DNA from: an uncultured Nitrososphaerales archaeon
GTDB lineage: Archaea; Thermoproteota; Nitrososphaeria; Nitrososphaerales; Nitrososphaeraceae
NCBI GenBank assembly: GCA_963695855.1
Contig: CAVOHZ010000011.1
Span: 1-17,044, forward strand
Direction: 5' to 3'
Length of the DNA: 17,044 nt
Made by a program: the position numbers and the translations under genes. Each line of letters opens with the position of its first letter. Within the stretch, counting starts at the first letter, position 1. Shown here in pieces: positions 1-16,339 of this stretch. Below the pieces are notes generated by a model. It was not told where the DNA came from and ran no database searches. It saw nothing but the letters and a program-made list of their open reading frames with translations.

Positions 1-740
1 ACACTATCTTTCCATTCTTGCAAATCATTCTTCTGCATTTTCACCATCTTGTTTCTAAGGTAATGATTGGTCTTGTTTCTGCATCTAGAATTCTTTCTTA
101 CCTTTATTGCTGGTTGTATGCCTTTAAATGATAGAAACTGAAGATTCTTGTTGCTATCATAGGAACCATCCATGATAGCAGTATCTATTACCTTATTCTG
201 TTTTATTGCTATATAATCAACCAATTTTGGAAGTACTTTTACATCATGTACTTCTTCACTAGTAACATCTAATGATAGAATTCTCTTCTTTTTTATATCG
301 ACTGCTAAATGTATCTTTAGATATCCTCTTTTTACATTCCACTTGTGTCTAATCCATTCACCCCTCTTAGATACCTTTATACCGGTAGAATCAATTGCAA
401 TAACAAAATTATCATCATGCAAGTTAGATTTGGTTATATCATCAGAAATCTTGATATCCAGTCTATTTATTCTTCTGCTAATGTTACTATAATCTGGAAT
501 TGATGGCAAAGTGTTTGAAGCATGTTCTCTTACTACTCCTTCAGTTTGTCTGTAGGGTAAGTGAAAGTATGCTCTCATGTATCCCAATAACTTGACAAAT
601 GAATCTGGATATACGAATTTCCTACCTTCCTTTTCCTTATTCATCTTCTCTAGTTCAGTATTCCAGTTATCTATAACATCAAAATCCAGTAATACCTCAC
701 CACGTTTAACAAGAGATTCGTTGTAATTTCTCCAGTTCAC
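1..740 (-). CDS. IS5-family (IS903 group) DDE transposase, 3' end outside window
   Basis: My translation from GTG at 740: MNWRNYNESLVKRGEVLLDFDVIDNW...FHLPYRQTEG...PDYSNISRR...IAIDSTGIKVSKRGEWIRHKW...YLKIHLAVD...VHD...MDGSYDS. It stays open to the window edge. NWxxYNxxLxxRG, DSTGxK, GEW and DGxYD are IS903-group signatures. Absent from the ORF track because there is no stop in the window. Confidence 0.93.
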   Translation of the reverse strand, partial: MNWRNYNESLVKRGEVLLDFDVIDNWNTELEKMNKEKEGRKFVYPDSFVKLLGYMRAYFHLPYRQTEGVVREHASNTLPSIPDYSNISRRINRLDIKISDDITKSNLHDDNFVIAIDSTGIKVSKRGEWIRHKWNVKRGYLKIHLAVDIKKKRILSLDVTSEEVHDVKVLPKLVDYIAIKQNKVIDTAIMDGSYDSNKNLQFLSFKGIQPAIKVRKNSRCRNKTNHYLRNKMVKMQKNDLQEWKDS

Positions 741-802
741 ATAATATGACTAGAATTGGTTAGCTAAATGTGTTGGGAAGAACAAGTTGTGCAACAAGGC
801 AC
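1..802 (-). mobile_element. IS5/IS903-group insertion sequence (left end at about 801-802; right end outside window)
   Basis: The transposase has, about 60 bp upstream, the minus-strand sequence (G)TGCCTTGTTGCACAAC, which resembles the IS903 terminal repeat GGCTTTGTTG. Similarity between the two copies stops exactly here. Confidence 0.85.
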
Positions 803-940
803 AGTTATCTATAATATCAAAATCCAGTAATACCTCGCCACGTTTAACAAGAGATTCGTTGTAATTTCTCCAGTTCACATAATATGACTAGAATTGGTTA
901 GCTAAATGTGTTGAGAAGAACAAGTTGTGCAACAAGGCAC
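803..940 (-). mobile_element. Second, truncated IS left end (terminal repeat plus first 25 transposase codons)
   Basis: 803-940 repeats 665-802 directly (period 138) with 3 substitutions. Confidence 0.9.
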
Positions 941-1105
941 CCATTACAACAGAATAAATATGATCAATATTTTATGAATCATGAATTATATGATAACAAT
1001 TATGTTACTGATTTCCATTTTATTTTAATGTATTGTATCTCTCTTCTTTCTTGATCTTGTTAATTCATTGCTTATATATTATACTTCCATAGAGAGGTAA
1101 CAGAT

Positions 1106-1412
1106 TCACCATTTAACATGGGTAACACTTTTTATCTGCTTGATCGTCTTGTTATTTTCACAAATATTTAATCTTCTTACTTTCCTAAATAACATTTCAC
1201 CTATACTGTGAGCATTGATGTAACGATGTTGTTTTGTATAGTTGTGTACCTTAACATTCAGAGAATACACCTTCCTACCCTCTTCACAGTTGGGAATATT
1301 TATTGCAAGGAACTCGTTTTTGAGTCCTTTCTCAGTAAATGAAATTTTAATCTATACTGGGAGGTACAACAAACAGAACAGAATCTCTATATATTTTTCT
1401 ATATTCCGTCAT
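1106..1412 (-). pseudogene. Possible frameshifted hypothetical gene
   Basis: ATG at 1412 gives MTEYRKIYRDSVLFVVPPSID*. A different frame is open from 1351 to the stop at 1106 (IKISFTEKGLKNEFLAINIPNCEEGRKVYSLNVKVHNYTKQHRYINAHSIGEMLFRKVRR...KW*). One base change near 1351 would join them. Confidence 0.35.
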
Positions 1413-1470
1413 TGATGCACTTTTGAGGAAGGCGAACAGGATTTATTTGTCTGTTAGGCACTAATTATAC

Positions 1471-1478
1471 TTTATATA
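1471..1478 (+). promoter_or_regulatory. Archaeal TATA box candidate
   Basis: TTTATATA about 33-41 nt upstream of the ATG at 1512. Confidence 0.45.
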
Positions 1479-1511
1479 TATGTTTTAATACTATAAAAAC
1501 AAAATTAAGAT

Positions 1512-1922
1512 ATGCCAAAAACAACAGCGAATGGTCCAACACTGGTGATTTCTGGTTCTTGTATTAATTTTGACAAAGAAAGAATTAGGATAATTGAGCA
1601 TATAAACGAATTAGAATTGATATCACACACAAAAACTGATTACGAAGTGTCATCAGAGGGCTCTTCTTTAGGATGGGACTTTTTTCGGATTTATTTTGAG
1701 CAAAATTTTGTCGAACGAATATCCGAAATTTTTCCAGAGATGCAAAAAGAAGTAGGAGTTACTTTAGAACAACGCTTCGTAATTTGGTTATCCAAAAGAT
1801 TTAAAAAAAGAAAATTAGATTATTATTTGAAACTAGAAGAAATACCGTATGAAAAAACATTAGGTTTTAGACTTGATCCAGAAAACTATCGTAACGAAGA
1901 AGATCTGGTGGATTTACGCTAG
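1512..1922 (+). CDS. Hypothetical protein (136 aa)
   Basis: ORF track; protein-like composition; upstream TATA; no recognised motif. Confidence 0.8.
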   Translation: MPKTTANGPTLVISGSCINFDKERIRIIEHINELELISHTKTDYEVSSEGSSLGWDFFRIYFEQNFVERISEIFPEMQKEVGVTLEQRFVIWLSKRFKKRKLDYYLKLEEIPYEKTLGFRLDPENYRNEEDLVDLR

Positions 1923-2039
1923 CTTTACTTTCTATTAGCTTCATTTTATTTGTAATATTCATTGTTTTCCACATTTATTGGTTAGGGACTATGAATAATT
2001 TGTCATACGCTTTATAGGACAAGTAACATATTAAAGATT

Positions 2040-2354
2040 ATGAGTTATGGATACGAGATAGGTCCCGGCGATAATCAGGGTCTATCAAATAAACAACTTG
2101 CATTGATATTTGGACTAGGTATAACAGGGATTTTTCTAGTGTTTGCTATTTTTATTTTCCCAATACAAAATCTTTTTCGTGAATCAGTTAGTGAGCAAGT
2201 TGTAATAGTTACTAAAAGTGATGGTGATTGTGTTGTAAATAGTCAAGATCACCCAAGAAGCATTCCTAACTGCAATTATGATGTAGGAGATAAAGTACAA
2301 ATCACATACAAATATGGCACTGCTATGATTGAGGATCATAAAAAAATAAATTGA
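2040..2354 (+). CDS. Small membrane-anchored hypothetical protein (104 aa)
   Basis: One hydrophobic segment (LALIFGLGITGIFLVFAIFIFPI) followed by a beta-rich domain with two Cys. TTTATA at 2011 suggests a leaderless transcript. Confidence 0.8.
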   Translation: MSYGYEIGPGDNQGLSNKQLALIFGLGITGIFLVFAIFIFPIQNLFRESVSEQVVIVTKSDGDCVVNSQDHPRSIPNCNYDVGDKVQITYKYGTAMIEDHKKIN

Positions 2355-2455
2355 GACTCATATGATTTTTTTCTACACACCTTTTAAAAATCTAAATTTA
2401 CCTAATGATGAAAATATAAGATAACATTAAATCTTTGAACAAGCAATAATTTCAT

Positions 2456-2752
2456 ATGGTATTAGAAGATGAATTAACCAGAAAGTTACTGGATAAAATA
2501 ATCCAGAATGTTATTTCATGCTTGCCCATGATAGAAAGAATATCTAAAGTACAAAATGAAAGAATCAAAGAAGAGATAGGAGTCGTTAACCAAAGAGACT
2601 TTATCATGGGAGCTATATGGTGTACGATATTAGAGAAATTCCTCGTTTCTTCATATCTTTATACTGGTAAAACTATTACCTATGAACAAGGTTTAGAAAT
2701 AAGTGACTATACATTAGATAGCATATCAAAGTTATCACTTGAGATCAAATAA
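2456..2752 (+). CDS. Hypothetical protein (98 aa), predicted helical
   Basis: ORF track; same strand as its neighbours. Confidence 0.7.
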   Translation: MVLEDELTRKLLDKIIQNVISCLPMIERISKVQNERIKEEIGVVNQRDFIMGAIWCTILEKFLVSSYLYTGKTITYEQGLEISDYTLDSISKLSLEIK

Positions 2753-2896
2753 ATAAATAATTATTAAATGTGAAGCTACGGTAATACTTTATATGATGAG
2801 GTTCAGAGAATTTATAATAAAAAAACCAGATATTGTCTTAAATTAAGAATTAAAATTATGAAACCAAATTATCAAGCCAATAACAAATTAAGTGAC

Positions 2897-3792
2897 CTAT
2901 AAACCACTCATAATTTGATTTATTAGTTTTAGTGCATTTTTAGCACTTTTTTCTTTATCTTTTATCTCCAACATGATATCTAAATCAACAGAAGTAATGA
3001 CGAGAACAAATTCCTTGAATTGTTTCATATCCAAAGTAGCAGAATGTTTTCCTTTTCTTTCATTTGGCTCCTGATTACTATAATCAATCATTATTATTCC
3101 ATCTCTATGATTATACCATGTATCGCTAGCCCTTTGCAAGGCATGAATTAATGACAAATTATCTCCAAAACACTTATGATGAAATGTGTCAAAAAGAATT
3201 GGTATATCTGTATTCGAGTGAATTTCTATACAATCATTCAAATTATAAAGATGATCGTCGTTTTCGAATACCAACCTTTTTTTTACTTTTTCAGAAAGCA
3301 AATTCTTGTAATTTGATATGAATTTTTTCTTTGAATCTTCTCTGTCTCCATAAACTCCTCCAACATGAATTTGAACTTTTGCTGAGGTATGAAGTCTCAT
3401 TAGATCCAGAACATCTGTATGATACTCTAGTTCTTTAATACTATTATTCACAATATCTGGATTTTTTGAATTTATGAGAACGAATTGGTCTGGATGCATA
3501 GATATTCTCATATCATTTTCTTTTATCAATCTGCCAATTTTTATAAAATCACATCTAAAAGATTTTTTCCAGTCGAATTTACATATTGAATGAGATGCGA
3601 ATGGAATTAAATCTGAACTTATTCTAAAAAACATGAGATTGTTTTCTATATTATACTTTAATATTTCAACAAGAGTGTCAAGATTGTATTATATGGATTG
3701 AATCAATCGTTCTTCAGTGTAAGAAGATAATCGAAATGTTGATACCGTTTTTTTCCAATTGAATAATTTATACACGGATAACCGATCTTCAT
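2897..3792 (-). pseudogene. uvsE: UV-damage endonuclease UvsE/UvdE, disrupted
   Basis: Motifs FFRISSDLIPFASH, RISMHPDQF, IHVGG, ENDD, FDTFHH, GKHS and DIMLEIKDKE. The true start is ATG 3792 (MKIGYPCIN). A 1-nt deletion in the 7-A run (3748-3754) and an in-frame TAA (3689-3691) precede the listed ORF 2897-3634. Repaired length is about 298 aa. Confidence 0.92.
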
Positions 3793-4004
3793 AAGCAATT
3801 ATTTAATACCATCGAGAAAATTAAGATTTTTTTACTTATTGAAATACTCAATTTATTGTAAATTAAAAATATCGGTTTTGATAAAAATATAGACAAATTT
3901 ACGCGACTTTTTTTCTTTTGAATTTGTTAATAATGTTATAATTAATCGACGTTTTTCTTTAGTTAAGTACAAAAATTTGGGTGATTGTATTTTCTAACAA
4001 GTTG

Positions 4005-4041
4005 GCACTATGTTAATTTTTTTACCTCTAGTTTTTATATA
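4005..4041 (+). promoter_or_regulatory. GCACTATGT motif (4005-4013) plus TATA box TTTATATA (4034-4041)
   Basis: Upstream of the ATG at 4061. The same 9-mer occurs twice upstream of the B12-binding gene. Confidence 0.5.
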
Positions 4042-4060
4042 AATAAGAAAAAGATATGAT

Positions 4061-4624
4061 ATGTTAAAACAAAAAGGATGCAATATGGTGATTCTTTATT
4101 GTACCATTGCTGGCTTCATTTCAGCTTGGACAATATCTGGATTACTTGTAATTGTAGATATTGTTTCAAATACTCCTGCAGATACATTCTTTTCGGTCAC
4201 AGGAGTATCAATTGGAATAGAAGATCCTGTTGTGGCTCAGTATATTGGTTTTGGATTACACGCGCTAACTGGAACTGCGGCTGGCAATATTTTTGGACAA
4301 GTAACATCCTTTTGGAATAAAGTATTTCCAACTGGCATCAGACGAGGGATACCGCTTGGAATAATTCAGGGAATAGCATTGTGGATTTTATTGTTCGTTC
4401 CTTTAGCTACTATGGCAATTCAAGCCAAACTTGATTCTCTTGTGACCATGGCCACAAATGAGAATTTCAAAAACATTGCATTTCATTTTGAAGGATGGTA
4501 TCTAGTCATCATAAGTGGATCATTGATATTTCATATAATGTAGACAGTTTTACTGGGCTTTATTGTTGGGAGTATGTCAGAACTTGATTTGTTTGTTCAC
4601 CCGACTTTCAATAAAAATGTATGA
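4061..4624 (+). pseudogene. Multi-pass membrane protein interrupted by TAG at 4541-4543 (listed ORF 4061-4543)
   Basis: About four hydrophobic helices, with intramembrane His in GFGLHALTG and LIFHIM. After the TAG the same frame continues the hydrophobic helix, TVLLGFIVGSMSELDLFVHPTFNKNV, to TGA at 4622-4624 (187 aa if read through). Confidence 0.7.
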
Positions 4625-4847
4625 TGTCTTTGACGAAATTACATACAATAAGATAGTAAATATGATAGCCATAACAAAAATAAGTACATTTAATAAAAAG
4701 TGATCTAAAAATGGATACATTAACAAAGTCATATACAGATAATCAGTATAAAAGCGGATGCATTTTTTGTTACTAAGGATTAAAAAATATTCTAAAATAT
4801 CTATTTAAAAATATTATAGAGTATTCAACTGTTGGAGAGAAAAATAA

Positions 4848-6224
4848 TTGAAAAATAATCAAAATCAAGAGAAAAAATTACGTATTTTAGTAACAGGAGC
4901 AACTGGATTTATAGGTTCAAGGCTTACTAGAAGATTAATTGCCTTGGGAAAATATCATATTCGTTGCATGACTAGAAATCCAGATGAAATATACAAAAAG
5001 ATATTTGGGTTAAGTGAAAATATTATTGAGATAGTAAGGGTAGATGCTACCAAATATGAAGAAGTATTAAAAGCCTTAGAAGATATTGATGTGGTTTTTT
5101 ATTTAATTCATTCAATGGAAGGTACATCTTTAAAATGGAAAGAATTCTCGTACAAAGATAAATTAATAGCTGAAAATTTTGCTAAAGCTGCCTCAGAAAA
5201 AAGAGTTAAAAGGATAATATATTTAGGAGGTCTAATTAATGAAATTAATAATCTTTCCGAACATATGCGAAGTAGGAAGGAAGTTGGAGAAATTCTCAAA
5301 AAATCTACGACCAAAGTTACAGTATTACGTGCCGCAATAATTTTAGGAGCAGGAGGAGGATCGTTTCAAATGCTAAAATATCTAGTAGAAAGACTTCCAA
5401 TTATGGTGTGTCCCAGGTGGGTTCAAACCAGATCACAGCCAATAGCAGTTGATGATGTTGTAAACTATCTTGTGACTTGTTTGGAGGTTTCAGAAACACA
5501 AGGAAAAGACTTTGATATTGGAGGTCCAGAAATAGTCACCTATTTTGAGTTAATGAAAAGATATGCAAGCACATTCAATAAATCATTAAGAATACTAGTT
5601 ATACCTTTTTTAACTCCGAGATTATCTTCTTACTGGATAGACCTTGTCACGCCAGTTCAGGCCTCTTTAGCAAGACCATTGATTGATAGTTTGAAACATG
5701 AAGCCACAGTTAAGGATGAACAAATAAGAAAATTAATCCAATTTGATCTTTCTACTATTGAGCAAGCCATAAAAACGTCTAAAAAAGAATCTGAAATCAA
5801 ATCGAAAATTCTAAAAATAAATGAAAAAAGTTCCATTTCATTGAACAACAAAATACTAATTATATCACTTTTATTGTTGGCAGCAATTGGTTCAACATAT
5901 TATTTTTTAGATACACGACAAGATGTTTTTCGGCCATATTGGATCGTTTTAAGTTTTTTATGGTATTTTGGAATATTCTTTTCTATTTATTTTGTTAGAT
6001 ATGGCGCAAGGCTTGGATCTCTCATTGCAGGGACTTTAGGATGGATAACAATAACCTTTTGGTTATTAGATAACATTCGCTTGGTTTATGATACATCTAT
6101 TATAACCTCCTCACCATCAGACCTTATAATGACTATTAGGAATTTTCTAGGGGGTGTAATATCTATTTCGGTAATATTATCGTCTCATAATGTCTTTCAC
6201 AAGATAAGATTATATAAAATATGA
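4848..6224 (+). CDS. Atypical SDR / NAD(P)H-binding protein (YbjT-like) with a C-terminal ~4-TM domain
   Basis: ILVTGATGFIG Rossmann motif; family motifs YLIHSM, IIYLGGL, SEHMRSR, LRAAIILGAGGGSF and QPIAVDDV. Residues from about 335 onward are hydrophobic helices. TTG start. Confidence 0.88.
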   Translation: MKNNQNQEKKLRILVTGATGFIGSRLTRRLIALGKYHIRCMTRNPDEIYKKIFGLSENIIEIVRVDATKYEEVLKALEDIDVVFYLIHSMEGTSLKWKEFSYKDKLIAENFAKAASEKRVKRIIYLGGLINEINNLSEHMRSRKEVGEILKKSTTKVTVLRAAIILGAGGGSFQMLKYLVERLPIMVCPRWVQTRSQPIAVDDVVNYLVTCLEVSETQGKDFDIGGPEIVTYFELMKRYASTFNKSLRILVIPFLTPRLSSYWIDLVTPVQASLARPLIDSLKHEATVKDEQIRKLIQFDLSTIEQAIKTSKKESEIKSKILKINEKSSISLNNKILIISLLLLAAIGSTYYFLDTRQDVFRPYWIVLSFLWYFGIFFSIYFVRYGARLGSLIAGTLGWITITFWLLDNIRLVYDTSIITSSPSDLIMTIRNFLGGVISISVILSSHNVFHKIRLYKI

Positions 6225-6503
6225 TAATGTGATCCAACGAAAAGAAAATTAAATCTCTTTAAAATATATTTTTTATTTTGGGGCATATTATAATTACCAT
6301 TATCCATATATTTATTATAAAAATATTTTGCTAATATTACCGCATTTCAATAATTATATTAAATTAGATTAAATACTGTGAAAACCTCATTTATTTGAAT
6401 AATAATTTTTATAGTGCTATTATATTATAACCAATACTAAATTTGAACCTAAAAACAAGAAATTAACATTTTAAAAAAATCAAATTGAATAATAGGGCTA
6501 AAA

Positions 6504-7379
6504 TTAAACATTTATGTATTCATTAATATGGCGTATAAAATTACTTATTGATTCGTTATGCAAAATACTAATTTTGTTCTGTTTGTTTTGATTTTCTATC
6601 GCCTTGTCCCCTTTCAATGCAATGACCCCTGCTCCAGCAACTACTATGTTAGTTGGATATTTTTTATTTATTTCATTTATTAGTCTTATAGCGGTATTTT
6701 TATGTTCTGATAATGTAATGCATATTATTATTAAATTCGGGCGTGCTTCATTTACATATTCAATTATTGATTCGTTCGGAGCTGATGGAGATATATTATA
6801 AACGTGATATTTTTTTTCTAATAATAGTGATTCAAGTATCTCACACCCAATCTTGTGTATTTCTCCCTCTGGAGTACATAAAAGGACCTTTATCGGTTTT
6901 TTCTTTTCTGTGTCCAAACTATGAAACTTGTTATTTATTATACTTATTAGGTTCGAAGCTGCATTACTGCAAGCGTGTTCCGTGGCAACATCTAATTCTT
7001 CTTTCTCCCACAGGTTCCCTACCTTTTGCAACACAGGAATTAGAATAAATTCATAAAAATCAGTTAAATCAATATTCTTCGTAGAAGTAGAATAAATGTT
7101 TATTACTTTATTTATATCGTAATTAATCAGAGCTTCAAATAATCGATCTTGAAATATCCTTTCTGATTCTTTATCTCTTCCTTTATCACTAAATTTTCCA
7201 AAAAATGATATTACATTTTCTGTTTTGCGATATTCTTCCGGAATATCATCAATGGATAATTTAGAAATATTTCCTAAATATTTGACTGTTATTTGTTTAG
7301 GTTTTTTTTCTGTCCAGACATTTTTTACTAAATAAGCATAGGAATTATTTTTTATTTTTTTTACTCTGATATAGACCAT
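6504..7379 (-). CDS. Cobalamin-binding regulator, CarH/LitR-like sensor domains with a non-MerR N-terminal domain
   Basis: W-x9-EH (WEKEELDVATEH) in the cap domain. E-x-H-x2-G (EIHKIG)-x41-C-x-T-x25-AG matches the spacing of the B12-binding consensus D/E-x-H-x2-G-x41-S-x-T/V-x22-27-GG. Confidence 0.88.
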   Translation of the reverse strand: MVYIRVKKIKNNSYAYLVKNVWTEKKPKQITVKYLGNISKLSIDDIPEEYRKTENVISFFGKFSDKGRDKESERIFQDRLFEALINYDINKVINIYSTSTKNIDLTDFYEFILIPVLQKVGNLWEKEELDVATEHACSNAASNLISIINNKFHSLDTEKKKPIKVLLCTPEGEIHKIGCEILESLLLEKKYHVYNISPSAPNESIIEYVNEARPNLIIICITLSEHKNTAIRLINEINKKYPTNIVVAGAGVIALKGDKAIENQNKQNKISILHNESISNFIRHINEYINV

Positions 7380-7465
7380 TTTTACTCATCGTCGTACAAC
7401 ATGTACGTAGGGTAGCCGAAGTAATAGAATTTTTCATAATTGTATAAAGCGTTCATGCCTATTTA

Positions 7466-7499
7466 TACATAGTGCTAAATCTGTTACATAGTGCTAAAT
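7466..7499. repeat. Two perfect 15-bp direct repeats TACATAGTGCTAAAT (7466-7480, 7485-7499), period 19; candidate operator
   Basis: Read directly from the sequence. Lies upstream of the B12-binding gene and its minus-strand TTTATA (7448-7443). Confidence 0.85.
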
Positions 7500-7660
7500 G
7501 TGAAAGAAAGAATAAAAATTTTATTCGATAAAATATTTTAAATATTGCTTTGGACTGCTTTATAGAATCTAAGTAAAGTCCAGAACTATTTCGTATGCAT
7601 TAATTAGATTTTTCTATATTTTATTGTCTTTTTAGACCAAGATTTGAACCAGATATTCAG

Positions 7661-7734
7661 TGGGGTCGGCCGGATTTGAACCGGCGGTCTCCAGCGCCCG
7701 AGGCTGGAATCATGCCAAACTAGACCACAACCCC
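7661..7734 (-). tRNA. tRNA-Pro(CGG), no intron, CCA not encoded
   Basis: Minus strand GGGGTTG TGGTCTAGTTTGGCATGAT T CCAGC CT CGG GC GCTGG AGACC GCCGG TTCAAAT CCGGC CGACCCC A. Acceptor, anticodon and T stems all pair. Confidence 0.96.
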
Positions 7735-7918
7735 GAAAATCATTGGATGTACTCACGGTCACCGTAATTATTAACTTATTTTTCGATATAAAAAGTCAAT
7801 TCTGTAAAAAACATATGATTTCCATATCATTTTTTAAGATATTATAGAGGCTCAATATCCAGAGTAAAAATAAATTTTTACTTTCCATAGTCTCGTCAGT
7901 TAATCTATCTTTAAAAAA

Positions 7919-9274
7919 TCAATATCTAATTCTAGAATATATATCTTCAATGTTCCATAAATGTTCTGGAACACCTTGAAGAGTTTTAGTTTTTCGTTTC
8001 TCTTTTGTTATATTTTTTAAAATAATTCCTTGCTTGGCCAGATCATGTACAATCATTGCAGCCATTGGTAATGCACCAGTTGCACCAGGTGAATTATAAT
8101 TCAGGATATGCAACGATGAGACATCCTTTAATAAGATAGTATCTGGTATAAATGAACCTTGATTATTTATTAGAACCAATCTTATTCCAGAAATTCCTCT
8201 ACTATTAAATTTCTTAGGATCTATCAATGGAAGAAATTGTTTTACTCTATTTATCATGGCTTTTTTAGATAATGAGCTATTTGTTTCTGTTAATATCAGA
8301 GAAAGAAATTCTTTCTCCATAACTAGTGACCAAAACCCCTTTTTTCTTACTACTTCTTGTATTCTTGGAAACACTTCTCTAAAATTTTTTCTTATGTTAT
8401 ATGCATAGGCTCCACAAACTGGTAGCGCATTTGGGCCGACCTCACAATGACCATCAATCCTTACAATCCAATGAGGATCAAGAAAAGGAAATTTCTTTTG
8501 TCTAGGCACCGAGTAAATACTACGAGACGTTAAAGATTCATATTCCTTAGGTGAAATCCAGTATTCTCCTCTAAAATATAAGTTAATAAAGCCTTTTCCA
8601 ATTCCGAAAGAATGTGCAATTTCAAGAGAATTTCCTCCAGCAGCGTTGACGATGTAGTCGGTCTGAATTGTTTTTTCCTTCCCTTTGTCGGATCGTATTG
8701 TTATTGTGTTTTGACCCTCCGACGACTTTATTCCTTTTACCTTGTGAGAAAAAAGGATATTCCCTCCTCTAAATAGATAATCTTCCTTTAAAAACTTAGT
8801 TAGGAGAGAGTAATCTACACTTGCATCTCTTCTGCAGTATATCGATGCCCTGCATTTGACATTAGGTTCAATTTTTTGTGTCTGATTGAAATCAAGAAAA
8901 GAAATATCATTCTCATCGAGCCCATTTTTTATTCCCCATTCTAAATATTTCCTTAGAGTATCTATGTCTTTATCTTCTTTTGCGATTTCTATTACTCCAT
9001 CGTTTTTAAAATAAATATTCTTAGACTGAGAATATTTTTCCCACATCTCGTATCCTAAGTAAGCAATTTTTCCAAAAATTTTCTTTTTTTCTGGATCATA
9101 TAAGAAAGGTGAATGAACTTTTCCAGTGTTTCTAGAACTTGTGTGGTATCCCACATCTTTTTCCTGTTCAATGATTATTGTATTAGCTTCACTATTTAAT
9201 GCCAAAAAATATCCAATAGAAACCCCTAATATTCCTCCACCAATGATTGCAATATTGTATTTTTTTTCTTCCAC
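7919..9274 (-). CDS. FAD-dependent oxidoreductase, L-2-hydroxyglutarate oxidase (LhgO)-like
   Basis: Motifs IAIIGGGILG, HTSSRNTGKVH, VNAAGG, FRGEY, FPFLDPH, VGPNA and NYNSPGATGA. Confidence 0.88.
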   Translation of the reverse strand: MEEKKYNIAIIGGGILGVSIGYFLALNSEANTIIIEQEKDVGYHTSSRNTGKVHSPFLYDPEKKKIFGKIAYLGYEMWEKYSQSKNIYFKNDGVIEIAKEDKDIDTLRKYLEWGIKNGLDENDISFLDFNQTQKIEPNVKCRASIYCRRDASVDYSLLTKFLKEDYLFRGGNILFSHKVKGIKSSEGQNTITIRSDKGKEKTIQTDYIVNAAGGNSLEIAHSFGIGKGFINLYFRGEYWISPKEYESLTSRSIYSVPRQKKFPFLDPHWIVRIDGHCEVGPNALPVCGAYAYNIRKNFREVFPRIQEVVRKKGFWSLVMEKEFLSLILTETNSSLSKKAMINRVKQFLPLIDPKKFNSRGISGIRLVLINNQGSFIPDTILLKDVSSLHILNYNSPGATGALPMAAMIVHDLAKQGIILKNITKEKRKTKTLQGVPEHLWNIEDIYSRIRY

Positions 9275-9471
9275 CGTTTGTTTAGGATTAGATAAATGTA
9301 ATTCTAATATGATTTTTTTTATTAACAGATACGAAATGTATCTTGTTTTAGTATAATCTTTATTATCAAGACTCTATTTTTACATTATCTTTCCGTTATT
9401 AATTATTTAATTGAAAATATAAATGGATACAGAGAATATCCTATTTTTTTATATTTATTATTATTTTTATA

Positions 9472-9801
9472 CTACCTTTTGATGTCGACTTGTAAAATCT
9501 CTCCTACCTGCGGATTTCCCATAATTTGATATTTTCTTTTTGGCATTGTTATCTGTATAACGGTTTTAGGATATGTTTTGATGACTGTCTGTGGTTGTGA
9601 TTTTAATATAGCTTCTAGTAAGGGTTTTATCTGTTGTTTGACCTCGTCGTCTGTTACTGTTCTATCCACAGCCTCCAATATCATCTGTTGCTGTGAAATA
9701 GGTTCTAATTCTATATCTTCACTCAAAGATAATGTAACATTGGATCCATTGTCCACCAATTGTTTTATCATATACTTACTTGTTGCCTCAGAATTTTCCA
9801 A
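9472..9801 (-). CDS. Small protein resembling arcadin-1
   Basis: Beta-beta, helical insert (IKPLLEAILKSQP), then IQITMPKRKYQIMGNPQVGEILQVDI, which recalls the arcadin-1 C-terminus. The start may be the ATG of MIKQ rather than TTG 9801. Confidence 0.6.
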   Translation of the reverse strand: MENSEATSKYMIKQLVDNGSNVTLSLSEDIELEPISQQQMILEAVDRTVTDDEVKQQIKPLLEAILKSQPQTVIKTYPKTVIQITMPKRKYQIMGNPQVGEILQVDIKR

Positions 9802-9908
9802 ATTTTTATTACAAAGTAAAAAATAAATATAATATTATTAATTGTTATTTTTTTATATTTTTACAATTCAAGTCAAAATATTGACTCAAAATAATATTGT
9901 TGAGTATT

Positions 9909-10226
9909 TTAAACAGAATACATTATTCCACCAGATACAATTGGCACTTGTTCAACTTTGGCAAGTTCTTTGATCCTAGCTATTATTGCATTGAACCACA
10001 AGCTATCTATACCTTGACTCCATATCGTTATCTTTTTGTAACTTTTTTTTATGCCATCGTGAAAATAGCCGGAGCAATCTTCTGCGGTAATATTGCAGTA
10101 TTTTTGACTAACCTCTTCTATTACATCTGAAGCACTTTCAGGTAAATACAAAATAGTTAGGGTCGGAAAGGGGATTGTACTAGACGTTTCTGTTGAACTG
10201 CTGCTATTCTTTTCGTTCATTTTCAA
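9909..10226 (-). CDS. Hypothetical protein (105 aa)
   Basis: ORF track; same strand as the flanking genes; alternating beta/alpha pattern. Confidence 0.75.
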   Translation of the reverse strand: MKMNEKNSSSSTETSSTIPFPTLTILYLPESASDVIEEVSQKYCNITAEDCSGYFHDGIKKSYKKITIWSQGIDSLWFNAIIARIKELAKVEQVPIVSGGIMYSV

Positions 10227-10322
10227 TAGATTAAATATTTCCTGTAATAAGTAAATTTCGTCTTCATTGTATTGGTTATAAGACTAAAAATTCATAATTC
10301 TTTGTAAAGGTATTAGAAATAT

Positions 10323-11084
10323 TTAAGATTCTGTTATCAACGAGATTATTTTCTCCAAGTTTTTCCTGTTTTTCTCCTTCTTATACTCTCTTAGATTCTC
10401 AACCATCAAGTCTTCCTTGTTAAAATCCAATATCTTTTTTATTTTTTTTGCAAGTAATCCACCTAAAATTAGAGAATGTGTTATCGATGTAACATTTGTA
10501 GTTTTTCTATTGATTGAAGAGCTCTCAAAATCTATTATAACAACTTTTTTTTCATATGAGATAATTATATGGTTATCTATTCTTGTTAATTCACCATGGT
10601 CAAGATAGATTCCATCTAAGTGATAACATTGTTCCAAGATTTCATTTATTACCTTTTTTACAGCCTGTTTGGAAATTAGATTATTGCAATTACCCTGTTC
10701 ATCAATCCATAGAGAAATTTTTTTTCCATCTATTAGTTCCATTAGAATAAAATCTTTTTTCTGATCTATGAGTTTTGGACCAATATCTAGTATATTTGCA
10801 ATTATCATCATTTTTGCTTCTTCATGTGAATTCTTTCTAGGAGAATCAGATCTTCTGATTTTTAAGGCAAGATTCTTCCCCCTGTTCGTGTTTACTTTGA
10901 CAACTATGCCAGAGTGACCTTTTCCAAGAATATCTAAATTATGTATTTTTGTAGGACCAGAAATGATAATTTCTTCTATCCCCAGATCAATTAATTCTTT
11001 AACCCTTTCTTGATATACAAAATGATCAAATTTTGGATACGAAATTAAATGCTGTACTATTGGAGAATTTATATCAATCTTCAA
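10323..11084 (-). CDS. Archaeal Ser/Thr kinase-like protein (RIO/Bud32-related)
   Basis: Gly-loop LGKGHSGIV, ALKIRR, HGEL and IIDFE. Overlaps cca by 11 nt. Confidence 0.88.
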   Translation of the reverse strand: MKIDINSPIVQHLISYPKFDHFVYQERVKELIDLGIEEIIISGPTKIHNLDILGKGHSGIVVKVNTNRGKNLALKIRRSDSPRKNSHEEAKMMIIANILDIGPKLIDQKKDFILMELIDGKKISLWIDEQGNCNNLISKQAVKKVINEILEQCYHLDGIYLDHGELTRIDNHIIISYEKKVVIIDFESSSINRKTTNVTSITHSLILGGLLAKKIKKILDFNKEDLMVENLREYKKEKNRKNLEKIISLITES

Positions 11085-12570
11085 AGATCATCGAATTCTT
11101 GAATATAAAGTCATATAATACATCCTGATATATAGGATCCTTTCTTATTTTTTTACTATTTAGGAAAAATAATCCAACTCCTTTCTTGAGGTCAGATCTC
11201 AATCCTTTTGGAATTCCTATCTCTGTGTTACTGGTTATTGCTTCCTTTAAGAATTCTATTATGTCATCATTCTTTCGTTCCTTCAGACAAGAAATTTTCA
11301 TTTCCTCATTTATCCAAGTGAATATTGAATTGTTCTTGTTTTTTTTGATAAAATTGCTAACTTCGTCTTTCATAAAAACGTCTGGTCCTTTATTAACCAT
11401 ATAGAAAGGTAACTTTTTAAATTCTAATAATAATATGATTAGTGCAAGATTGCACTCATCTTTTATGTAGCATTGACTTTTTAATATATTGAAGTCAATA
11501 CTATTTGTTTGATTGACAATGGCTTTTGTCAGTTTCTTTAATTGTCCGGATATTACATCTGGGCTTCTAGTACTGTAATGAAATTTCATAACGACCAAAT
11601 TTGAAAGTATATCACTTTTTCTCTGATCCGCAACTACTTTGGTTACTTTGTTAAATGATTGTTGAAAGTTAAAAAAGTACATCGAAGGATGTTTCAAAAA
11701 AGTTCTGGAAGCCATTATGAATTTTGATAAACTTTCAGCTGAGATAGCAGCACCTAGATTTCTATTTTCATCAATTGGGTCGATAATGATTATGGGACTA
11801 TGAAATTTGGTTTCGTCAATTTCTTTATTTTCATATGTAGAAATCACGGTTTCTTTTTTTTCCAAATTTGAAATATTTACTAGCACATCTTTAAATGTAT
11901 TATATTTTAAAACCAATACTTCAGAAACATATCCACTAAATCCAGAGGTAAGCATTTCTGCTCCATAGATTCCAATAGTTTTTAAAAATTTTTTTAAAAT
12001 TCGTACTTGATCCTTATGATCCTTTGATAAATTCTTGGTCATATATTCTGTGTGATATTGGGATCTATCTGCAGCACTTTTCCAATTACCTTTTTCTACG
12101 GCATAGCAAGGTACTATGTTGATTCTGACTTGACACTCTTTTTTGTTTTTCCATACAAAACCCTCGACATAAGGATGTTCTGAAAATCTTGTTCTTGGTG
12201 TGTACTTGGATAGTGATTTGAAACCAATGTCCATGGCAATTCCCTCAAAATGACTTTCGCTAACTTTTTTGTCTATTAAAATGAAAATATCAATATCTGT
12301 GTCATTTTTTAGGTTTGTTCCTTTTGCAAATGAACCACCAGACTTTATAGCTACCACTTCTGGCACCAAGTTATTCTTGATTTCATTTATTATCTCTTTT
12401 TCAACGGAACGTAGTGTTTTTAATTCCAGTTTATTGGGTTGGCATGCTTTCAACGCTTTTTGAATAACTCTATCAAGATCCAGTGCAATGTGATTTTTGA
12501 TGCTATTATTACTTGTGGTAGCCGTCACTTGATTTTTGATTTTTGAATTTGTTTTATTTTTTGTTATCAT
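11074..12570 (-). CDS. cca: Class I (archaeal) CCA-adding tRNA nucleotidyltransferase
   Basis: GGSFAKGTNLKNDTDIDIFI nucleotidyltransferase motif, plus SEHPYV, SAADRSQYH, GIYGAE, GFSGY and IDPIDENRNLGAA. Confidence 0.96.
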   Translation of the reverse strand: MITKNKTNSKIKNQVTATTSNNSIKNHIALDLDRVIQKALKACQPNKLELKTLRSVEKEIINEIKNNLVPEVVAIKSGGSFAKGTNLKNDTDIDIFILIDKKVSESHFEGIAMDIGFKSLSKYTPRTRFSEHPYVEGFVWKNKKECQVRINIVPCYAVEKGNWKSAADRSQYHTEYMTKNLSKDHKDQVRILKKFLKTIGIYGAEMLTSGFSGYVSEVLVLKYNTFKDVLVNISNLEKKETVISTYENKEIDETKFHSPIIIIDPIDENRNLGAAISAESLSKFIMASRTFLKHPSMYFFNFQQSFNKVTKVVADQRKSDILSNLVVMKFHYSTRSPDVISGQLKKLTKAIVNQTNSIDFNILKSQCYIKDECNLALIILLLEFKKLPFYMVNKGPDVFMKDEVSNFIKKNKNNSIFTWINEEMKISCLKERKNDDIIEFLKEAITSNTEIGIPKGLRSDLKKGVGLFFLNSKKIRKDPIYQDVLYDFIFKNSMIFED

Positions 12571-12587
12571 CTTTTTTCACTTTGTAT

Positions 12588-13145
12588 TTATCTATTGATG
12601 GCATAAACTGTTAATAGGTTGGAGTAAATCGGCCCAGTTGGTCTGATATCACTTTTCTTTAGATAAATCTTATCAATTGTATCCTGTCCAAATTTCATGC
12701 CCTCATATTTTTTACATATCTCTTTTATGTTTTGGATCTTTGTTTTCACCCTAAAGATAGTTAGATGCGGTACAAATTTATTGTCCGTTTTAAAGCCAAT
12801 TTGCTTCATTTTTTCGTTAATCATATTAAATATCTTTACTAGATCTTTGGTCCCCTCTTCATCTATCCCTATCCACATTATCTTTGGAAACATTATAGAA
12901 GGGAATACTCCTATGCCGCTATACACTAATATCGTTTTCTCAAATTTTATTTGCGAAATTTCTTTTTTAACGGCTTCTACTTGAGAGTCATTTATCTCTC
13001 CTAAAAAAAATAATGTAAAATGCAAATTATTTACATCAACCGGTTTTAGATAGTTTTTATTCGCAATAACTTGATCTAAAACCTCTTGCTGTATCTCTCT
13101 AAACCTATCTTTTATTTCACAGTCTACAGCAATGAATGTTCTCAT
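12588..13145 (-). CDS. thpR: RNA 2',3'-cyclic phosphodiesterase (2H family, LigT/ThpR)
   Basis: MRTFIAV start, two HxT motifs (NLHFTL, VPHLTI) and C-terminal GPIY. Confidence 0.94.
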   Translation of the reverse strand: MRTFIAVDCEIKDRFREIQQEVLDQVIANKNYLKPVDVNNLHFTLFFLGEINDSQVEAVKKEISQIKFEKTILVYSGIGVFPSIMFPKIMWIGIDEEGTKDLVKIFNMINEKMKQIGFKTDNKFVPHLTIFRVKTKIQNIKEICKKYEGMKFGQDTIDKIYLKKSDIRPTGPIYSNLLTVYAINR

Positions 13146-13225
13146 TATGGATAGTCAAAAAACTAAAAACATATAATCATATCTTTTTAATATATCTTGT
13201 TAGATTAGTCTGAATATTAGTTTAT

Positions 13226-13254
13226 GATCGGCTTCTGTAGCCGATCGGCTTTTA
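13226..13254. repeat. GC-rich inverted-repeat/palindrome element; possible terminator or binding site
   Basis: GATCGGCT-tctgt-AGCCGATC forms an 8-bp hairpin. The overlapping AGCCGATCGGCT (13239-13250) is a perfect palindrome followed by TTTT. Confidence 0.55.
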
Positions 13255-13318
13255 TGGATCTGAATTTTTTTATAATTCAGTTGTATCTTTAGTAATTAGA
13301 TTTTTAGATTATATATTT

Positions 13319-13873
13319 TCAACTGTCTTTTTCTTGCATTATTTTATTGAAAACTCTGTCTATCTCTTCTATAGATTCGATATCTATATCCTTGTAGTCT
13401 TTTTTTAGGATATCTTCCAACATGCTTTTAGTAAATGTTTTCATTTCAAAATGCTCAATCCCATCCATTAATTTACAATTTGTTTGTTGACATGTTTCAA
13501 CATTTGTTGTAGGTTCCAAAGTATGTAATGCATCACCAATATCATGAATTAACGAAATCCTAATAGATGTCTGTTCGATGACCTTTTTTGATGTATCTAG
13601 AATTCCAATATCCCTTCTGATTCTATTCAATTCTTCAAATAGCTGTCTTGCTTCTTTATGTCTGCCTTTTTTAATTAGATCTAAAATCTTCATTAGCGTC
13701 TTATTTTCTTTTTCTTTTAATAGTGGATAAGCCTGATTTATTTTAGACATTCTTTCAGGAAAATCACTGATGGAAAAAATATCACTCTTTTTTGAGTCTA
13801 GCGGAGGATCTTCTTTATCATTTTTATCGTATACTTTTTTATGATCTGGTGTTTTCCTAAAGAAATTCCACAT
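13319..13873 (-). CDS. Divergent ESCRT-III (CdvB/Snf7-like) protein
   Basis: EARQLFEELNRIRR...KKVIEQTSIRISLIHDIGDALHTLEP matches the CdvB core pattern (A..ya.ELaeiRk...LEQi.lRl.t..dlGD...tL.P). Confidence 0.7.
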   Translation of the reverse strand: MWNFFRKTPDHKKVYDKNDKEDPPLDSKKSDIFSISDFPERMSKINQAYPLLKEKENKTLMKILDLIKKGRHKEARQLFEELNRIRRDIGILDTSKKVIEQTSIRISLIHDIGDALHTLEPTTNVETCQQTNCKLMDGIEHFEMKTFTKSMLEDILKKDYKDIDIESIEEIDRVFNKIMQEKDS

Positions 13874-14383
13874 GTCAAAAGAAATCTTTTTTTGATTTAA
13901 TAATATCGTTGTTTGTTTATGTAAATTAATTGATTAACTTTGTTAAAGATCGTGACTAATTGTATTTAGTAAATAATTAATTGGATTTGGGACGTAGTAA
14001 GGAAAAAACGAAGATAGTTCTGTGTAAATCGAAATATTTTCAATAATCTATTATTTTATTATTTTAAATTCTTATTTTAGATTACTCGATTTATACTCTA
14101 TCGACTTTACTTTTATCGATTGTCAATCTACTATTGTGTTAATTTCTTTCTATCTGCTTATTTTTAAGAAGTAGATTTTAAGTGATAATAGGTAACATAT
14201 TAGGTTTATTTAAGCAATTTTTCCAACCCTTGATGAAATACATAAAAGCAAAAATAAACGTTTGATTTTGTAAATTCAGCTAATAGAATTAATTATTTGA
14301 AATGGATTAATTAAAGAATTCACAATTTTGACTATTCTATTATCTGTAAACTTAAAATAATTGGAAGATTCTTTCAGTGTATT

Positions 14384-15334
14384 ATGTGGAAAGTAATGAT
14401 GCCTAAAAAAATAGTTTTTGGGGCAAATGCTGCAAAGGAGTTTGAATATCCAAAAAATTCTTTGATTATTACTACTACTAGCCCAGAAGTTTATGAGAAA
14501 TGGACAGAGTACATGGGAGTTACAAATTACGAGATTTATGATAAAGTTACTCCGGATCCTTCCATTGAAACAATTGAAAAGATAAAGAATGAATTTGAAG
14601 GAAAGAATATCTCTACTTACGTCGGACTTGGTGGTGGGAGCTCTATGGATGTCTGTAAATATCTTAGTAAATTGACTGGTGTTCCAAAGATTCTCATTCC
14701 GACGACATTTGGAACGGGAGCAGAAATGACTACCTATGCTGTGGTAAGCTTTAGTCACAAGAAAAAACTCTTACAAGATGAAGCCTTTCTGGCTGATACG
14801 GCAATAGTTGATCCGTACTTCCTACCAGGAACACCATTTAATATCATGAGAAATTCAGCTTGCGATGCCGCTGCTCAAGCTTCTGAGGGATATGATAGCA
14901 AAATTGGAAATCCATTTACAAGATTTTTCTGTAAAGAGGCATTTGATATCCTTGAAGATGCAATAATAAATGACAAACCTGACCTTCTTCCATATGGAGC
15001 TATGCTATCTGGAATTGGTTTTGGCAACTCTTCTACAACTTTGGGACACGCACTTTCATACGTATTTTCTAATGAAGGTGTACCACATGGCTATTCTCTT
15101 TCTTCTTGTACTACAGTAGCACACAAATTTAACAACTCCATTTTCTATGAAAGATTCAAGAAGATATGTCAAAAGCTAAAATTCGAACCTCTTACTTTAA
15201 AACAGCCACTTGATGAAGCAGCAGATGTGATCATGCCAGACAGAGGTCATCTTGATAACAATCCAATCGAAGTTACAAAAGAAGATATTATCAAGTGTCT
15301 AGACGAGATTCTGAATAAAAATCCACTAGCATAA
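14384..15334 (+). CDS. Iron-containing alcohol dehydrogenase family; probable malonic semialdehyde reductase of the thaumarchaeal 3-hydroxypropionate/4-hydroxybutyrate cycle
   Basis: GLGGGSSMD, PTTFGTGAEMTTY, CDAAAQASEGYDSK and STTLGHALSYVFSNEGVPHGYSLSSCTTVAHK closely match my recollection of the Nitrosopumilus enzyme. TATA-like TTAAAATA at 14352. Confidence 0.88.
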   Translation: MWKVMMPKKIVFGANAAKEFEYPKNSLIITTTSPEVYEKWTEYMGVTNYEIYDKVTPDPSIETIEKIKNEFEGKNISTYVGLGGGSSMDVCKYLSKLTGVPKILIPTTFGTGAEMTTYAVVSFSHKKKLLQDEAFLADTAIVDPYFLPGTPFNIMRNSACDAAAQASEGYDSKIGNPFTRFFCKEAFDILEDAIINDKPDLLPYGAMLSGIGFGNSSTTLGHALSYVFSNEGVPHGYSLSSCTTVAHKFNNSIFYERFKKICQKLKFEPLTLKQPLDEAADVIMPDRGHLDNNPIEVTKEDIIKCLDEILNKNPLA

Positions 15335-15484
15335 TTTTTTACTATCATTTGCTTATACAGGATATGGTTATTAACAGTGTAAAGGTTACAATAAAAAAAG
15401 TAAATCGTAAATCTGTTTTAATATAATGATACCAGTAAGAAACCTTTAAATTCATAATATTGAATATGAAGTGCAGATAGGGTT

Positions 15485-16090
15485 ATGACTACAACTATAA
15501 ACAAGTCGATGACAATTAACTCTCCAGTTAGCGAAGTTTTTACGTATTTTGCTCGTCCTGAACATATGGCTGATCAATTTCCAGAAAACATGGGACTCAA
15601 TGTTATTCCAATTGAAGTAAAAAATGGTTTTGGTATAGGGACAATTTTTAGAATAAGTGGCGATTTCGATGGTAAAAGATTAGAATGGGATTGTGAAACC
15701 ATTGACTATATTCCCCATAGAAAGATTGTTGCAAAAATGATCGAAGGTCCATTCAAAAAATGGAAAATAGAGGTCGATTTTGAAGAAATTGGCGAAAAGA
15801 CAACGAAAACAATGATTAAAGTTGACTATGATATGCCAATGGGTCCCTTAGGAGGATTTCTTGACAAGGTAAAGCTGAAGAAAATTGCAGAGAGGGGAAT
15901 TGAGAATGGATTGTATAATGTGAAAGCTTTGTTGGAAGGTACAGGTTCAATTCCAGTGTATATAACCTTGGATGCCTATAGAATAATTCTAAAAGAAAAA
16001 GAAAGATTGAATTGTTCTGTTTCTGAAACGATAGTAAAATTGTTTGAAAATAATAAAGAGCAAACTACGGTTACCGAACACACAGTATAA
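15485..16090 (+). CDS. SRPBCC (START/polyketide cyclase-like) protein with a C-terminal RHH-like extension
   Basis: INSPVSEVFTYFARPEHM start, EGPFKKW, and VDYDMPMGPLGGFLD. Tail: IPVYITLDAYRIILKEKERLNCSVSETIVKLFE. Confidence 0.85.
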   Translation: MTTTINKSMTINSPVSEVFTYFARPEHMADQFPENMGLNVIPIEVKNGFGIGTIFRISGDFDGKRLEWDCETIDYIPHRKIVAKMIEGPFKKWKIEVDFEEIGEKTTKTMIKVDYDMPMGPLGGFLDKVKLKKIAERGIENGLYNVKALLEGTGSIPVYITLDAYRIILKEKERLNCSVSETIVKLFENNKEQTTVTEHTV

Positions 16091-16331: not shown

Positions 16332-16339
16332 TTTATAAA
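16332..16339 (+). promoter_or_regulatory. TATA box for the zinc-finger gene (probably leaderless)
   Basis: TTTATAAA 23-30 nt upstream of the ATG at 16362. Confidence 0.55.

Follow-up and report, generated by a model that had tools for sequence, protein, structure and literature searches.

A candidate cobalamin-based light sensor and repressor in ammonia-oxidising archaea and its direct-repeat operator

How might ammonia-oxidising archaea (AOA) sense light? Light has long been known to inhibit archaeal ammonia oxidation, and it shapes the sites of nitrification in oceans, lakes and soils. To our knowledge, no light sensor or light regulon has been described in AOA. We approached this question through a DNA stretch of 17,044 nucleotides (the window, by which we mean the whole stretch analysed) from an uncultured Nitrososphaerales archaeon (assembly GCA_963695855.1, contig CAVOHZ010000011.1). 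The window encodes a B12-binding protein of 291 amino acids (aa), here called the regulator. We propose, with a probability of about 0.68, that the regulator is a cobalamin-based light sensor and transcription repressor of AOA that occludes the TFB recognition element and TATA box (BRE/TATA) of its promoters and is released by light. The protein carries the signatures and the fold of a cobalamin sensor, its operator is conserved, regulator and operator co-occur across genomes, and the regulator gene is coupled to genes for a photolyase and for SDR-TM, a short-chain dehydrogenase/reductase (SDR) with a transmembrane part. In the full-text literature, with most subscription journals outside its scope, we found no paper on a B12 photoreceptor or light regulon in AOA. 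The photolyases of Nitrosopumilus strains are treated in the accessible part of one paper on these strains, with no mention of a regulator (PMC4839502).

The following features of the window carry the argument:

6504-7379, minus strand: gene for the B12-binding regulator, 291 aa, with Pfam B12-binding_2 at residues 78-148 and Pfam B12-binding at residues 164-251
7460-7497, minus strand: regulator promoter/operator, read from the sequence
4002-4046, plus strand: membrane-gene promoter/operator, read from the sequence, which probably also serves the SDR-TM gene behind it
4061-4543, plus strand: membrane open reading frame (ORF) from the ORF list, no family assigned
4061-4624, plus strand: membrane protein gene including the stretch past its TAG codon, in which a remnant of the last helix can be followed to 4624
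4848-6224, plus strand: gene for the SDR-TM fusion, 458 aa, with Pfam NAD_binding_10, NmrA and Epimerase and a hydrophobic C-terminus

The regulator begins with a beta domain of three strands (residues 1-40), which a linker joins to a four-helix bundle and then a Rossmann domain for B12; it scores 44.1 bits for Pfam B12-binding_2 and 35.8 bits for B12-binding. The helix bundle carries W124-x9-E134-H135 and the Rossmann domain carries E173-x-H175-x-x-G178. All five of W124, E134, H135, E173 and H175 are invariant in the 21 aligned homologues (alignment A1). Across homologue loci from several families, Wx9EH is present in 57/57 and the lower-ligand motif [ED]xHxx[GAS] in 56/57. In the accessible parts of two reviews, Wx9EH together with the His-ligand motif is what defines CarH homologues, and Wx9EH is linked to the adenosyl group and to photoreceptor activity (PMC9304148, PMC8156234).

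The predicted structure agrees with these signatures. When the AlphaFold2 model of the regulator (pLDDT 84.7) was compared to the PDB with Foldseek, the top matches were all B12 photoreceptors, with E-values from 9e-12 to 1e-9. The best was the photocobilin 8j2w (E 9e-12), and further matches included the B12 domain of a Chloracidobacterium MerR-family protein (8jbs), AerR (7te2) and Thermus thermophilus CarH (5c8a_B; E 7.6e-10, TM score by target 0.82). The sensor domain was also predicted to form a homodimer, with a score of 0.64 compared to 0.00 for the best control, contact agreement of at least 88% and pLDDT of at least 84. This dimer is symmetric, the helix bundle of one copy packing against the Rossmann domain of the other. 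Of 30 proteins solved as one-chain pairs, 20 reached the same mark, as did 1 of 23 proteins with single-chain structures, and the pass may stem from resemblance to solved CarH. The regulator gene is intact, its product is 92% identical to the copies in sister genomes, and the genome encodes a PduO-type adenosyltransferase. From signatures and fold we infer that the 291-aa protein would bind cobalamin and respond to light.

The original prediction described the regulator as CarH-type. This description stands for the sensor domain (Wx9EH, His-ligand motif and fold) and falls for membership of the CarH family, as there is no MerR domain: neither Pfam nor NCBIfam matched one in the regulator. Some homologues already carry pipeline annotations, either 'MerR family ... 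light-induced transcriptional regulator' or, at JGI, 'MtbC1', and both labels are wrong in part.

At its N-terminus the regulator instead has three antiparallel strands (residues 2-9, 12-22 and 27-37), predicted with pLDDT of about 90 in two models. Conservation in the protein is highest over the first 40 or so residues, which are rich in invariant R/K/Y/W. We consider this N-terminus to be probably the DNA-binding part. A search with residues 1-62 against 1.84 billion representatives returned 199 proteins at E<=0.001, and in two archaeal proteins the regulator-type N-terminal domain is fused to an AAA_18 kinase-like domain. Archaeal proteins that share the domain were catalogued as P0186-P0270, for example P0242 and P0265.

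What DNA could such a protein recognise? A motif common to two promoters had been noted before, and the sequence bears it out: the window has exactly three copies of ACATAGTGC, at 4005-4013 (minus strand), 7467-7475 (plus) and 7486-7494 (plus), all within the two promoter regions. With one mismatch allowed, the window holds 4 matches compared to 1.98 expected, which is not significant alone. The shared motif is more than chance because it is conserved in other genomes. The repeat consensus is GTT(A/G)GCACTA, usually doubled, as direct repeats 19-21 bp apart that abut the TATA box. On the minus strand from 7497 to 7460, the regulator promoter reads TTAGCACTA-N10-TTAGCACTA-TG-TATAAATA. The distal repeat lies at 7489-7497 and the proximal repeat at 7470-7478, giving a period of 19, and the TATA box TATAAATA follows directly at 7460-7467. 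The membrane-gene promoter has its distal repeat TTGGCACTA at 4002-4010, followed by a degenerate proximal copy and a TATA-like TTTTTATATAAATA that ends about 15 nt before the ATG. A paralogue of the membrane gene on contig C3 of the same genome has a matching promoter arrangement.

This operator is found widely at regulator genes. In 45 of the 57 loci, the strict core of the motif is found no more than 150 nt ahead of the regulator gene. Of the 3922 ORFs in the genome to which the window belongs, only 13 are preceded by it on the same measure, and 7 of these 13 are in the genome's two regulator clusters or a duplicate contig end. Across families the architecture is kept at nearly every locus: two direct repeats, the proximal one touching the TATA box. 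The presence of a conserved operator at the regulator's own promoter implies autoregulation. Two public runs contain contigs of relatives in which the leader between TATA box and start (7400-7468 in the window) is replaced by 68 unrelated letters, and the operator from 7469 onward is kept. Most regulator paralogues have only about 25-35 nt from TATA box to start.

Within the genus (25 genomes), the two-repeat pattern matched 46 times, compared to 3 times for a reversed control. Of 401 genomes of the class, the 153 that carry the regulator yielded 195 matches, compared to 30 for the control; the 248 that lack it yielded 27, compared to 18. Put per genome, at least one match was present in 107/153 regulator-positive and 25/248 regulator-negative genomes. 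The pattern is thus enriched only in regulator-bearing genomes, and therefore the repeat goes with the regulator. One genome (G223) has a photolyase and three two-repeat matches with no regulator detected at E<=1e-20; its regulator may be missed, diverged or unassembled.

The genes preceded by the operator outline a possible regulon. In the window's own genome, good sites precede the two regulator genes, the two membrane genes, the photolyase on contig C3 and c50, a 114-aa gene beside the C3 regulator. Counted over all loci as a strict core within 180 nt upstream, the operator precedes the amine-oxidase-like gene in 10/12 cases, an 80-aa membrane protein (c9) in 5/6, a 66-aa Gly-rich membrane protein in 3/3, c50 in 3/3 and c10 in 5/15. 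For the membrane gene the count is 4/12 by the strict core and 10/12 by a relaxed one; for the photolyase it is 6/22, and for SDR-TM, counted directly, 6/25. The amine-oxidase-like protein resembles the phytoene-desaturase family, with scores below the cut-offs. Pfam and NCBIfam gave nothing for the regulator's N-terminus, the window's membrane protein, c9, c10, c50, a 61-aa protein or a 300-aa secreted protein. Hsp20, a CDC48-type ATPase and an SRPBCC protein were considered as regulon members and rejected, as none has the strict core upstream (0/7, 0/7 and 0/4, respectively).

Several operator-preceded genes stand out in other genomes. A TFB (TFIIB) paralogue has operator and TATA box upstream in two loci; one is L117:6870-7778 (minus strand; genome G137), and the second, shorter member (168 aa) is in one other of loci L112-L127. 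It resembles the UV-induced TFB3 of Sulfolobales, and its operator may point to a second tier of regulation. No operator is better conserved than AAGTTAGCACTATAAAAT.TAATTAGACACTAGTTTATATAT, which belongs to the small Gly-rich membrane protein (66-70 aa, starting MNFIKNITYG...), which occurs in several genomes of the genus (loci L060, L061, L069, L074, L077, L078, L079 and L082). The two-repeat pattern did not find this operator in the window's own genome. In the islands of family f13 described below, the most frequent operator-preceded gene (9/16 loci) encodes a secreted protein of about 300 aa with repeated PxWVKNNAGWWADG motifs and no family match (L112:846-1781, minus strand, and 8 other f13 loci).

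The SDR-TM gene is the regulator's most conserved neighbour, and its low direct operator count is explained by gene order: it usually follows a membrane ORF, and the operator stands before that ORF. The ORF ahead of SDR-TM encodes 185-206 aa in the window's family and about 70-80 aa in family f13. In the window, 300 nt separate the membrane gene from SDR-TM, with no repeat in between. With the operator ahead of the membrane ORF, we therefore read membrane gene and SDR-TM as one probable transcription unit. SDR-TM is intact and combines an atypical NAD(P)H-binding SDR with a membrane part at its C-terminus. Its identity is 95-97% to the copies in sister genomes and 60% to the own-genome paralogue. 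It scores above Pfam gathering thresholds for NAD_binding_10 (56 vs 27.2 bits), Epimerase (47.6 vs 20.9) and NmrA (44.2 vs 27), reaches no NCBIfam equivalog at its cut-off and receives only generic names in the ESM Atlas.

The membrane protein has conserved His residues in its transmembrane helices. In the window a TAG (4541-4543) terminates its ORF at a position that is Tyr in paralogues, with about 26 residues lost, as judged from a read-through aligned by eye with the 185-206-aa paralogues; the copies in sister genomes are frameshifted too. A full-length paralogue scores 21 bits for DUF6789 (cut-off 27.1), and the truncated window copy has no match. The ESM Atlas calls the protein 'hypothetical' and places DUF6789 on 11% of one cluster, which we treat as a lead only.

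The original prediction had named recurring linkage of the regulator to the SDR, the membrane protein or photolyase as its own test, and such linkage is what we observe. In a first set of 21 loci (±9 kb), the regulator occurs with membrane gene and SDR-TM in 7, the own-genome C3 paralogue included, and SDR-TM lies within 1.5 kb of the regulator in 7. A photolyase directly adjoins the regulator in 2 of these loci and lies 4 kb off in 1. A second set (±1.5 kb) comprises 22 further loci of other genera and families, and in 11 of these SDR-TM adjoins the regulator. The C3 cluster of the own genome repeats membrane gene, SDR-TM and regulator, with a photolyase added. In family f13 an island recurs in sixteen loci, with c10, the amine-oxidase-like gene, the regulator, a small membrane ORF with SDR-TM, and photolyase; these islands hold 88 core motifs in about 150 kb. 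The sixteen loci were picked for a nearby photolyase and are biased for it.

We also find a regulator with Hsp20 and CDC48 genes in 7 of the 21 first-set loci. In these group-B loci (L039, L042, L044, L045, L048, L050 and L051) genes for Hsp20 and a CDC48-type AAA ATPase come after the regulator gene in the same orientation, an SRPBCC protein is nearby, and RTX, ABC or FtsX genes are inserted in some. Hsp20 and CDC48 could be co-transcribed with the regulator there.

Across the class, the regulator is present in 153/401 genomes, and all of these fall in four families (f1, f13, f9 and f15) of the order to which the window belongs. The order's seven other searched families yielded it in 0/21 genomes, and the class's families outside the order in 0/64. 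Photolyase (PF03441) is encoded by 50/401 genomes, and 47 of these 50 also encode the regulator. Within genus g29, the regulator is present in 19/19 photolyase-positive genomes compared to 46/84 overall. The two genes share a contig in 27 genomes, at most 3 kb apart in 16 and at most 10 kb in 19 (distances counted by hand); in one genome the pair has no gap. These data indicate a strong coupling between regulator and photolyase.

How would the system work? Reasoning from CarH, in the dark adenosylcobalamin would sit beneath the Wx9EH cap with His175 as its lower ligand, and the protein would form head-to-tail oligomers. The N-terminal beta domains would bind the direct GTT(A/G)GCACTA repeats, which lie about two helical turns apart. 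With the proximal repeat abutting the TATA box, a bound regulator may block the assembly of TATA-binding protein (TBP) and TFB. Light would cleave the Co-C bond, the oligomer would disassemble and the promoters would open. The repressor would thus be autoregulated and control a small light regulon. We would guess, and this is the weakest step of the proposal, that the membrane protein, SDR-TM, the amine-oxidase-like protein and the small membrane proteins protect or repair the membrane under photo-oxidative stress.

A number of results weigh against this proposal. In the window protein, C-I-T stands in place of SxT and A-G-A-G in place of GG, a departure from the classic B12 motif; most regulator paralogues in the alignment of 21 have S-V-T and GG. 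For the N-terminal domain, Foldseek found nothing in the PDB below E 0.39, and the best VIA-align match among 48,161 chains (PSRP-3; Z 5.0, root-mean-square deviation 3.1, 65 aligned residues) falls in the stated noise range of the tool, so no fold was assigned. Besides B12 proteins, the same domain heads archaeal proteins of 155-215 aa that have no Pfam families. At the operator, 12/57 regulator genes lack the strict core upstream and 46/153 regulator-positive genomes lack a two-repeat match. Because genomes are related, the 2x2 tests on co-occurrence overstate the association and their P values are inflated. Within the own genome the 9-mer shows no enrichment (32 sites compared to 44.6 expected); sites there were judged by position relative to TATA boxes and genes, and a stricter regular expression gave only 2. 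The direct operator shares of photolyase and SDR-TM are low, the Hsp20 and CDC48 genes have none, and nor does uvsE, a UV-repair gene of the window (0/3 loci). Photolyase is not required, as 106/351 photolyase-negative genomes carry the regulator. Finally, the window's own cargo is decaying, with uvsE broken and the membrane gene shortened.

Some of these results would fit other explanations. The regulator might sense cobalamin supply or redox state and repress the same genes when B12 is plentiful, with any light sensitivity incidental. B12-binding domains do serve non-photosensory roles too, most operator-preceded genes have no known light function, and the regulator's presence in genomes without photolyase would be expected of such a sensor. 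We nevertheless think this unlikely, as no gene for cobalamin synthesis, cobalamin transport or a B12-dependent enzyme appears among the neighbours or the operator-preceded genes, and Rfam found no cobalamin riboswitch in 2500-8000. The strong photolyase coupling and the invariance of the Wx9EH cap, which the accessible parts of the reviews tie to the adenosyl group and photoreceptor activity, also argue for light. A different role, as corrinoid carrier of a methyltransferase system (MtbC/MtaC-like) in a coincidental neighbourhood, we regard as very improbable. The best NCBIfam rows by E-value are indeed corrinoid proteins, and JGI's use of the name MtbC1 for some homologues points the same way, but the scores are far under the cut-offs (TIGR02370 45.4 vs 215.3 bits; MtbC 40.4 vs 350 bits) and 20 neighbourhoods contained no methyltransferase. 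A carrier would also leave the N-terminal domain, Wx9EH, the operator and the photolyase coupling unexplained.

The repeat could instead be bound by another factor, such as a specialised TFB or an unseen repressor, with the B12 protein acting as its light-sensing partner or anti-repressor, as AerR does with CrtJ, and its N-terminus binding protein. The position of the proximal repeat at the BRE, the operator-preceded TFB paralogue in two loci, the lack of a confident DNA-binding relative for the N-terminal fold and the occurrence of that domain in proteins that are not obviously regulators would all suit this arrangement. However, no second regulator gene recurs beside the regulator, whereas the repeat stands at the regulator's own promoter in most loci across families and falls to background in regulator-negative genomes. 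The conservation of the N-terminal 40 residues and their invariant R/K/Y/W also speak for DNA contact, and two direct repeats two turns apart suit a tethered oligomer, as described for CarH in the accessible part of PMC8156234. Direct binding by the regulator is thus the reading we prefer, and a separate binding factor seems to us improbable.

A broader version of the proposal would make the regulator an AOA-wide photoreceptor transcription factor, in which a CarH-type adenosylcobalamin sensor is joined to a new beta-sheet DNA-binding domain that represses at BRE/TATA. As a master switch it would control photolyase, an NAD(P)H oxidoreductase anchored in the membrane, a flavoprotein resembling the phytoene-desaturase family, several small membrane proteins and, in part of the genomes, a TFB paralogue. 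To us the odds of this wider claim are even. Regulator and operator may explain how light-sensitive nitrifiers sense light, and a defined protein, operator and predicted target list make the question of light sensing in AOA testable. If true, B12 photoreception would extend to archaea, a new DNA-binding domain would be added, and a bacterial-type sensor module would be seen coupled to TATA-based archaeal transcription. The presence of the regulator would then predict which lineages cope with light, cobalamin production by AOA would be tied to light ecology, and the TFB paralogue could drive a second tier in some genomes. The system is also a possible new light-switchable part.

How does the window itself fit this picture? 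It is the entire 17,044-base contig (C11) of a 3.55-Mb genome. Its bases 2-4437 duplicate the end of contig C1 (G000:C1:1-4433) at 99.87% identity, and its bases 9100-17044 duplicate the end of contig C3 (G000:C3:476671-484618) at 99.7%, leaving only about 4438-9099 unique. The window therefore bridges both larger contigs. If they are so joined, the paralogous C3 module (about 349.8-357.3 kb) would lie roughly 120-130 kb away on the same replicon. The module in the window is a second, divergent and partly decayed copy in its own genome, in which regulator and SDR-TM are whole. A soil metatranscriptome and one run merely guessed to be RNA contain contigs with 90-99% likeness to parts of the membrane, SDR-TM and regulator genes; such contigs are uninformative on transcription, strand or starts, and no public run matched half the query words.

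The remaining features around the module are:

2897-3634, minus strand: uvsE, Pfam UvdE 173.7 bits
2897-3792, minus strand: full extent of the uvsE pseudogene, with a frameshift at 3748-3754 and a stop at 3689-3691; a neighbour only
7660-7734, minus strand: tRNA-Pro(CGG), from ARAGORN, Rfam tRNA 58.9 bits; context only

The ORF listing, tRNA scan and family searches agree with the original prediction on the positions of all four genes and tRNA-Pro. The module was also said to lie at the 3' flank of tRNA-Pro, and it does, since the tRNA is on the minus strand. An integrative island at this tRNA was considered and rejected, as no integrase is seen and two sister genomes have the same synteny. 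In 2500-8000 the tRNA is the only RNA family that Rfam recognised, and the gap at 6225-6503 holds no convincing small gene.

The inclusion of uvsE in the module was not upheld. The family match is clear (TIGR00629 158.5 vs cut-off 124.45, besides the UvdE score), and the gene is intact, with 300 aa, in two sister genomes. Here it is a pseudogene, because its frame is broken by the loss of 1 nt from a homopolymer (T7 at 3748-3754, compared to 8 in relatives) and by a stop at 3689-3691 (AAA>TAA); the overlapping contig C1 copy has both lesions. Of the 57 loci, uvsE is near the regulator in only 3, the window and two orthologues. With linkage confined to these orthologous loci and no operator at any of them, we rejected uvsE as a regulon member.

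Further out, window bases 1-940 are an insertion sequence with a DDE transposase (DDE_Tnp_1_5, DDE_Tnp_1). It has a 139-bp tandem duplication (664-802 and 802-940), and its bases 1-802 recur in more than 12 copies of at least 98.5% identity on contigs C1, C2, C3, C6, C8 and C10. On the other side, outside the module, 7919-9274 (minus strand) encodes an FAD oxidoreductase that is syntenic in two sister genomes; its nearest family is L-2-hydroxyglutarate oxidase (NCBIfam 223.5 bits, cut-off 299).

Which known systems does the archaeal regulator resemble? CarH and class I LitR of Thermus thermophilus, Myxococcus xanthus and Bacillus megaterium are adenosylcobalamin photoreceptor-repressors. The archaeal protein has in common with CarH the Wx9EH four-helix bundle, the ExHxxG Rossmann domain, the fold and the predicted bundle-to-Rossmann dimer. 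Both systems have a direct-repeat operator that overlaps the core promoter, as described for CarH in the accessible part of PMC8156234; binding by the archaeal protein would complete the parallel. The repeats differ: the archaeal ones are 9 bp long and 19-21 bp apart at a TATA box, whereas CarH uses tandem 11-bp repeats over sigma-A elements. Unlike CarH, the regulator has a three-stranded beta domain in place of the MerR winged helix, and NCBIfam NF052513 (TransRegCarH) reaches 39.6 bits against a cut-off of 400, with only the sensor part aligning. No carotenoid operon was seen at the archaeal loci. The regulator would work like CarH yet is outside the CarH family, because the defining MerR domain is absent.

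AerR/PpaA, stand-alone B12 domains and photocobilin have their fold in common with the archaeal protein, but all of these lack a DNA-binding part or have other effectors, whereas the archaeal protein has a conserved N-terminus and a matching operator. The corrinoid proteins MtbC, MtaC and MtgC and the B12 domain of MetH have the same two Pfam domains as the regulator. Unlike these methyltransferase proteins, the regulator is far under the family cut-offs, has no methyltransferase partner and contains Wx9EH.

In its gene content the archaeal island parallels a bacterial light cluster. The Pseudomonas LitR cluster contains photolyase, a short-chain dehydrogenase, an FAD-dependent oxidoreductase and unknown proteins, according to the accessible part of PMC9758184. 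The archaeal island, similar in content to this regulon of the Pseudomonas class II LitR proteins (PplR/PmlR), has a photolyase, SDR-TM and an amine-oxidase-like flavoprotein. The sensors differ, in that class II LitR has no B12 Rossmann domain and works with a LOV protein, whereas the archaeal B12 domain is complete, and neither the furan fatty-acid synthase nor folE of the Pseudomonas cluster was seen in the archaeal loci. The likeness to the Pseudomonas LitR cluster suggests that the archaeal genes may protect or repair membrane components under photo-oxidative stress.

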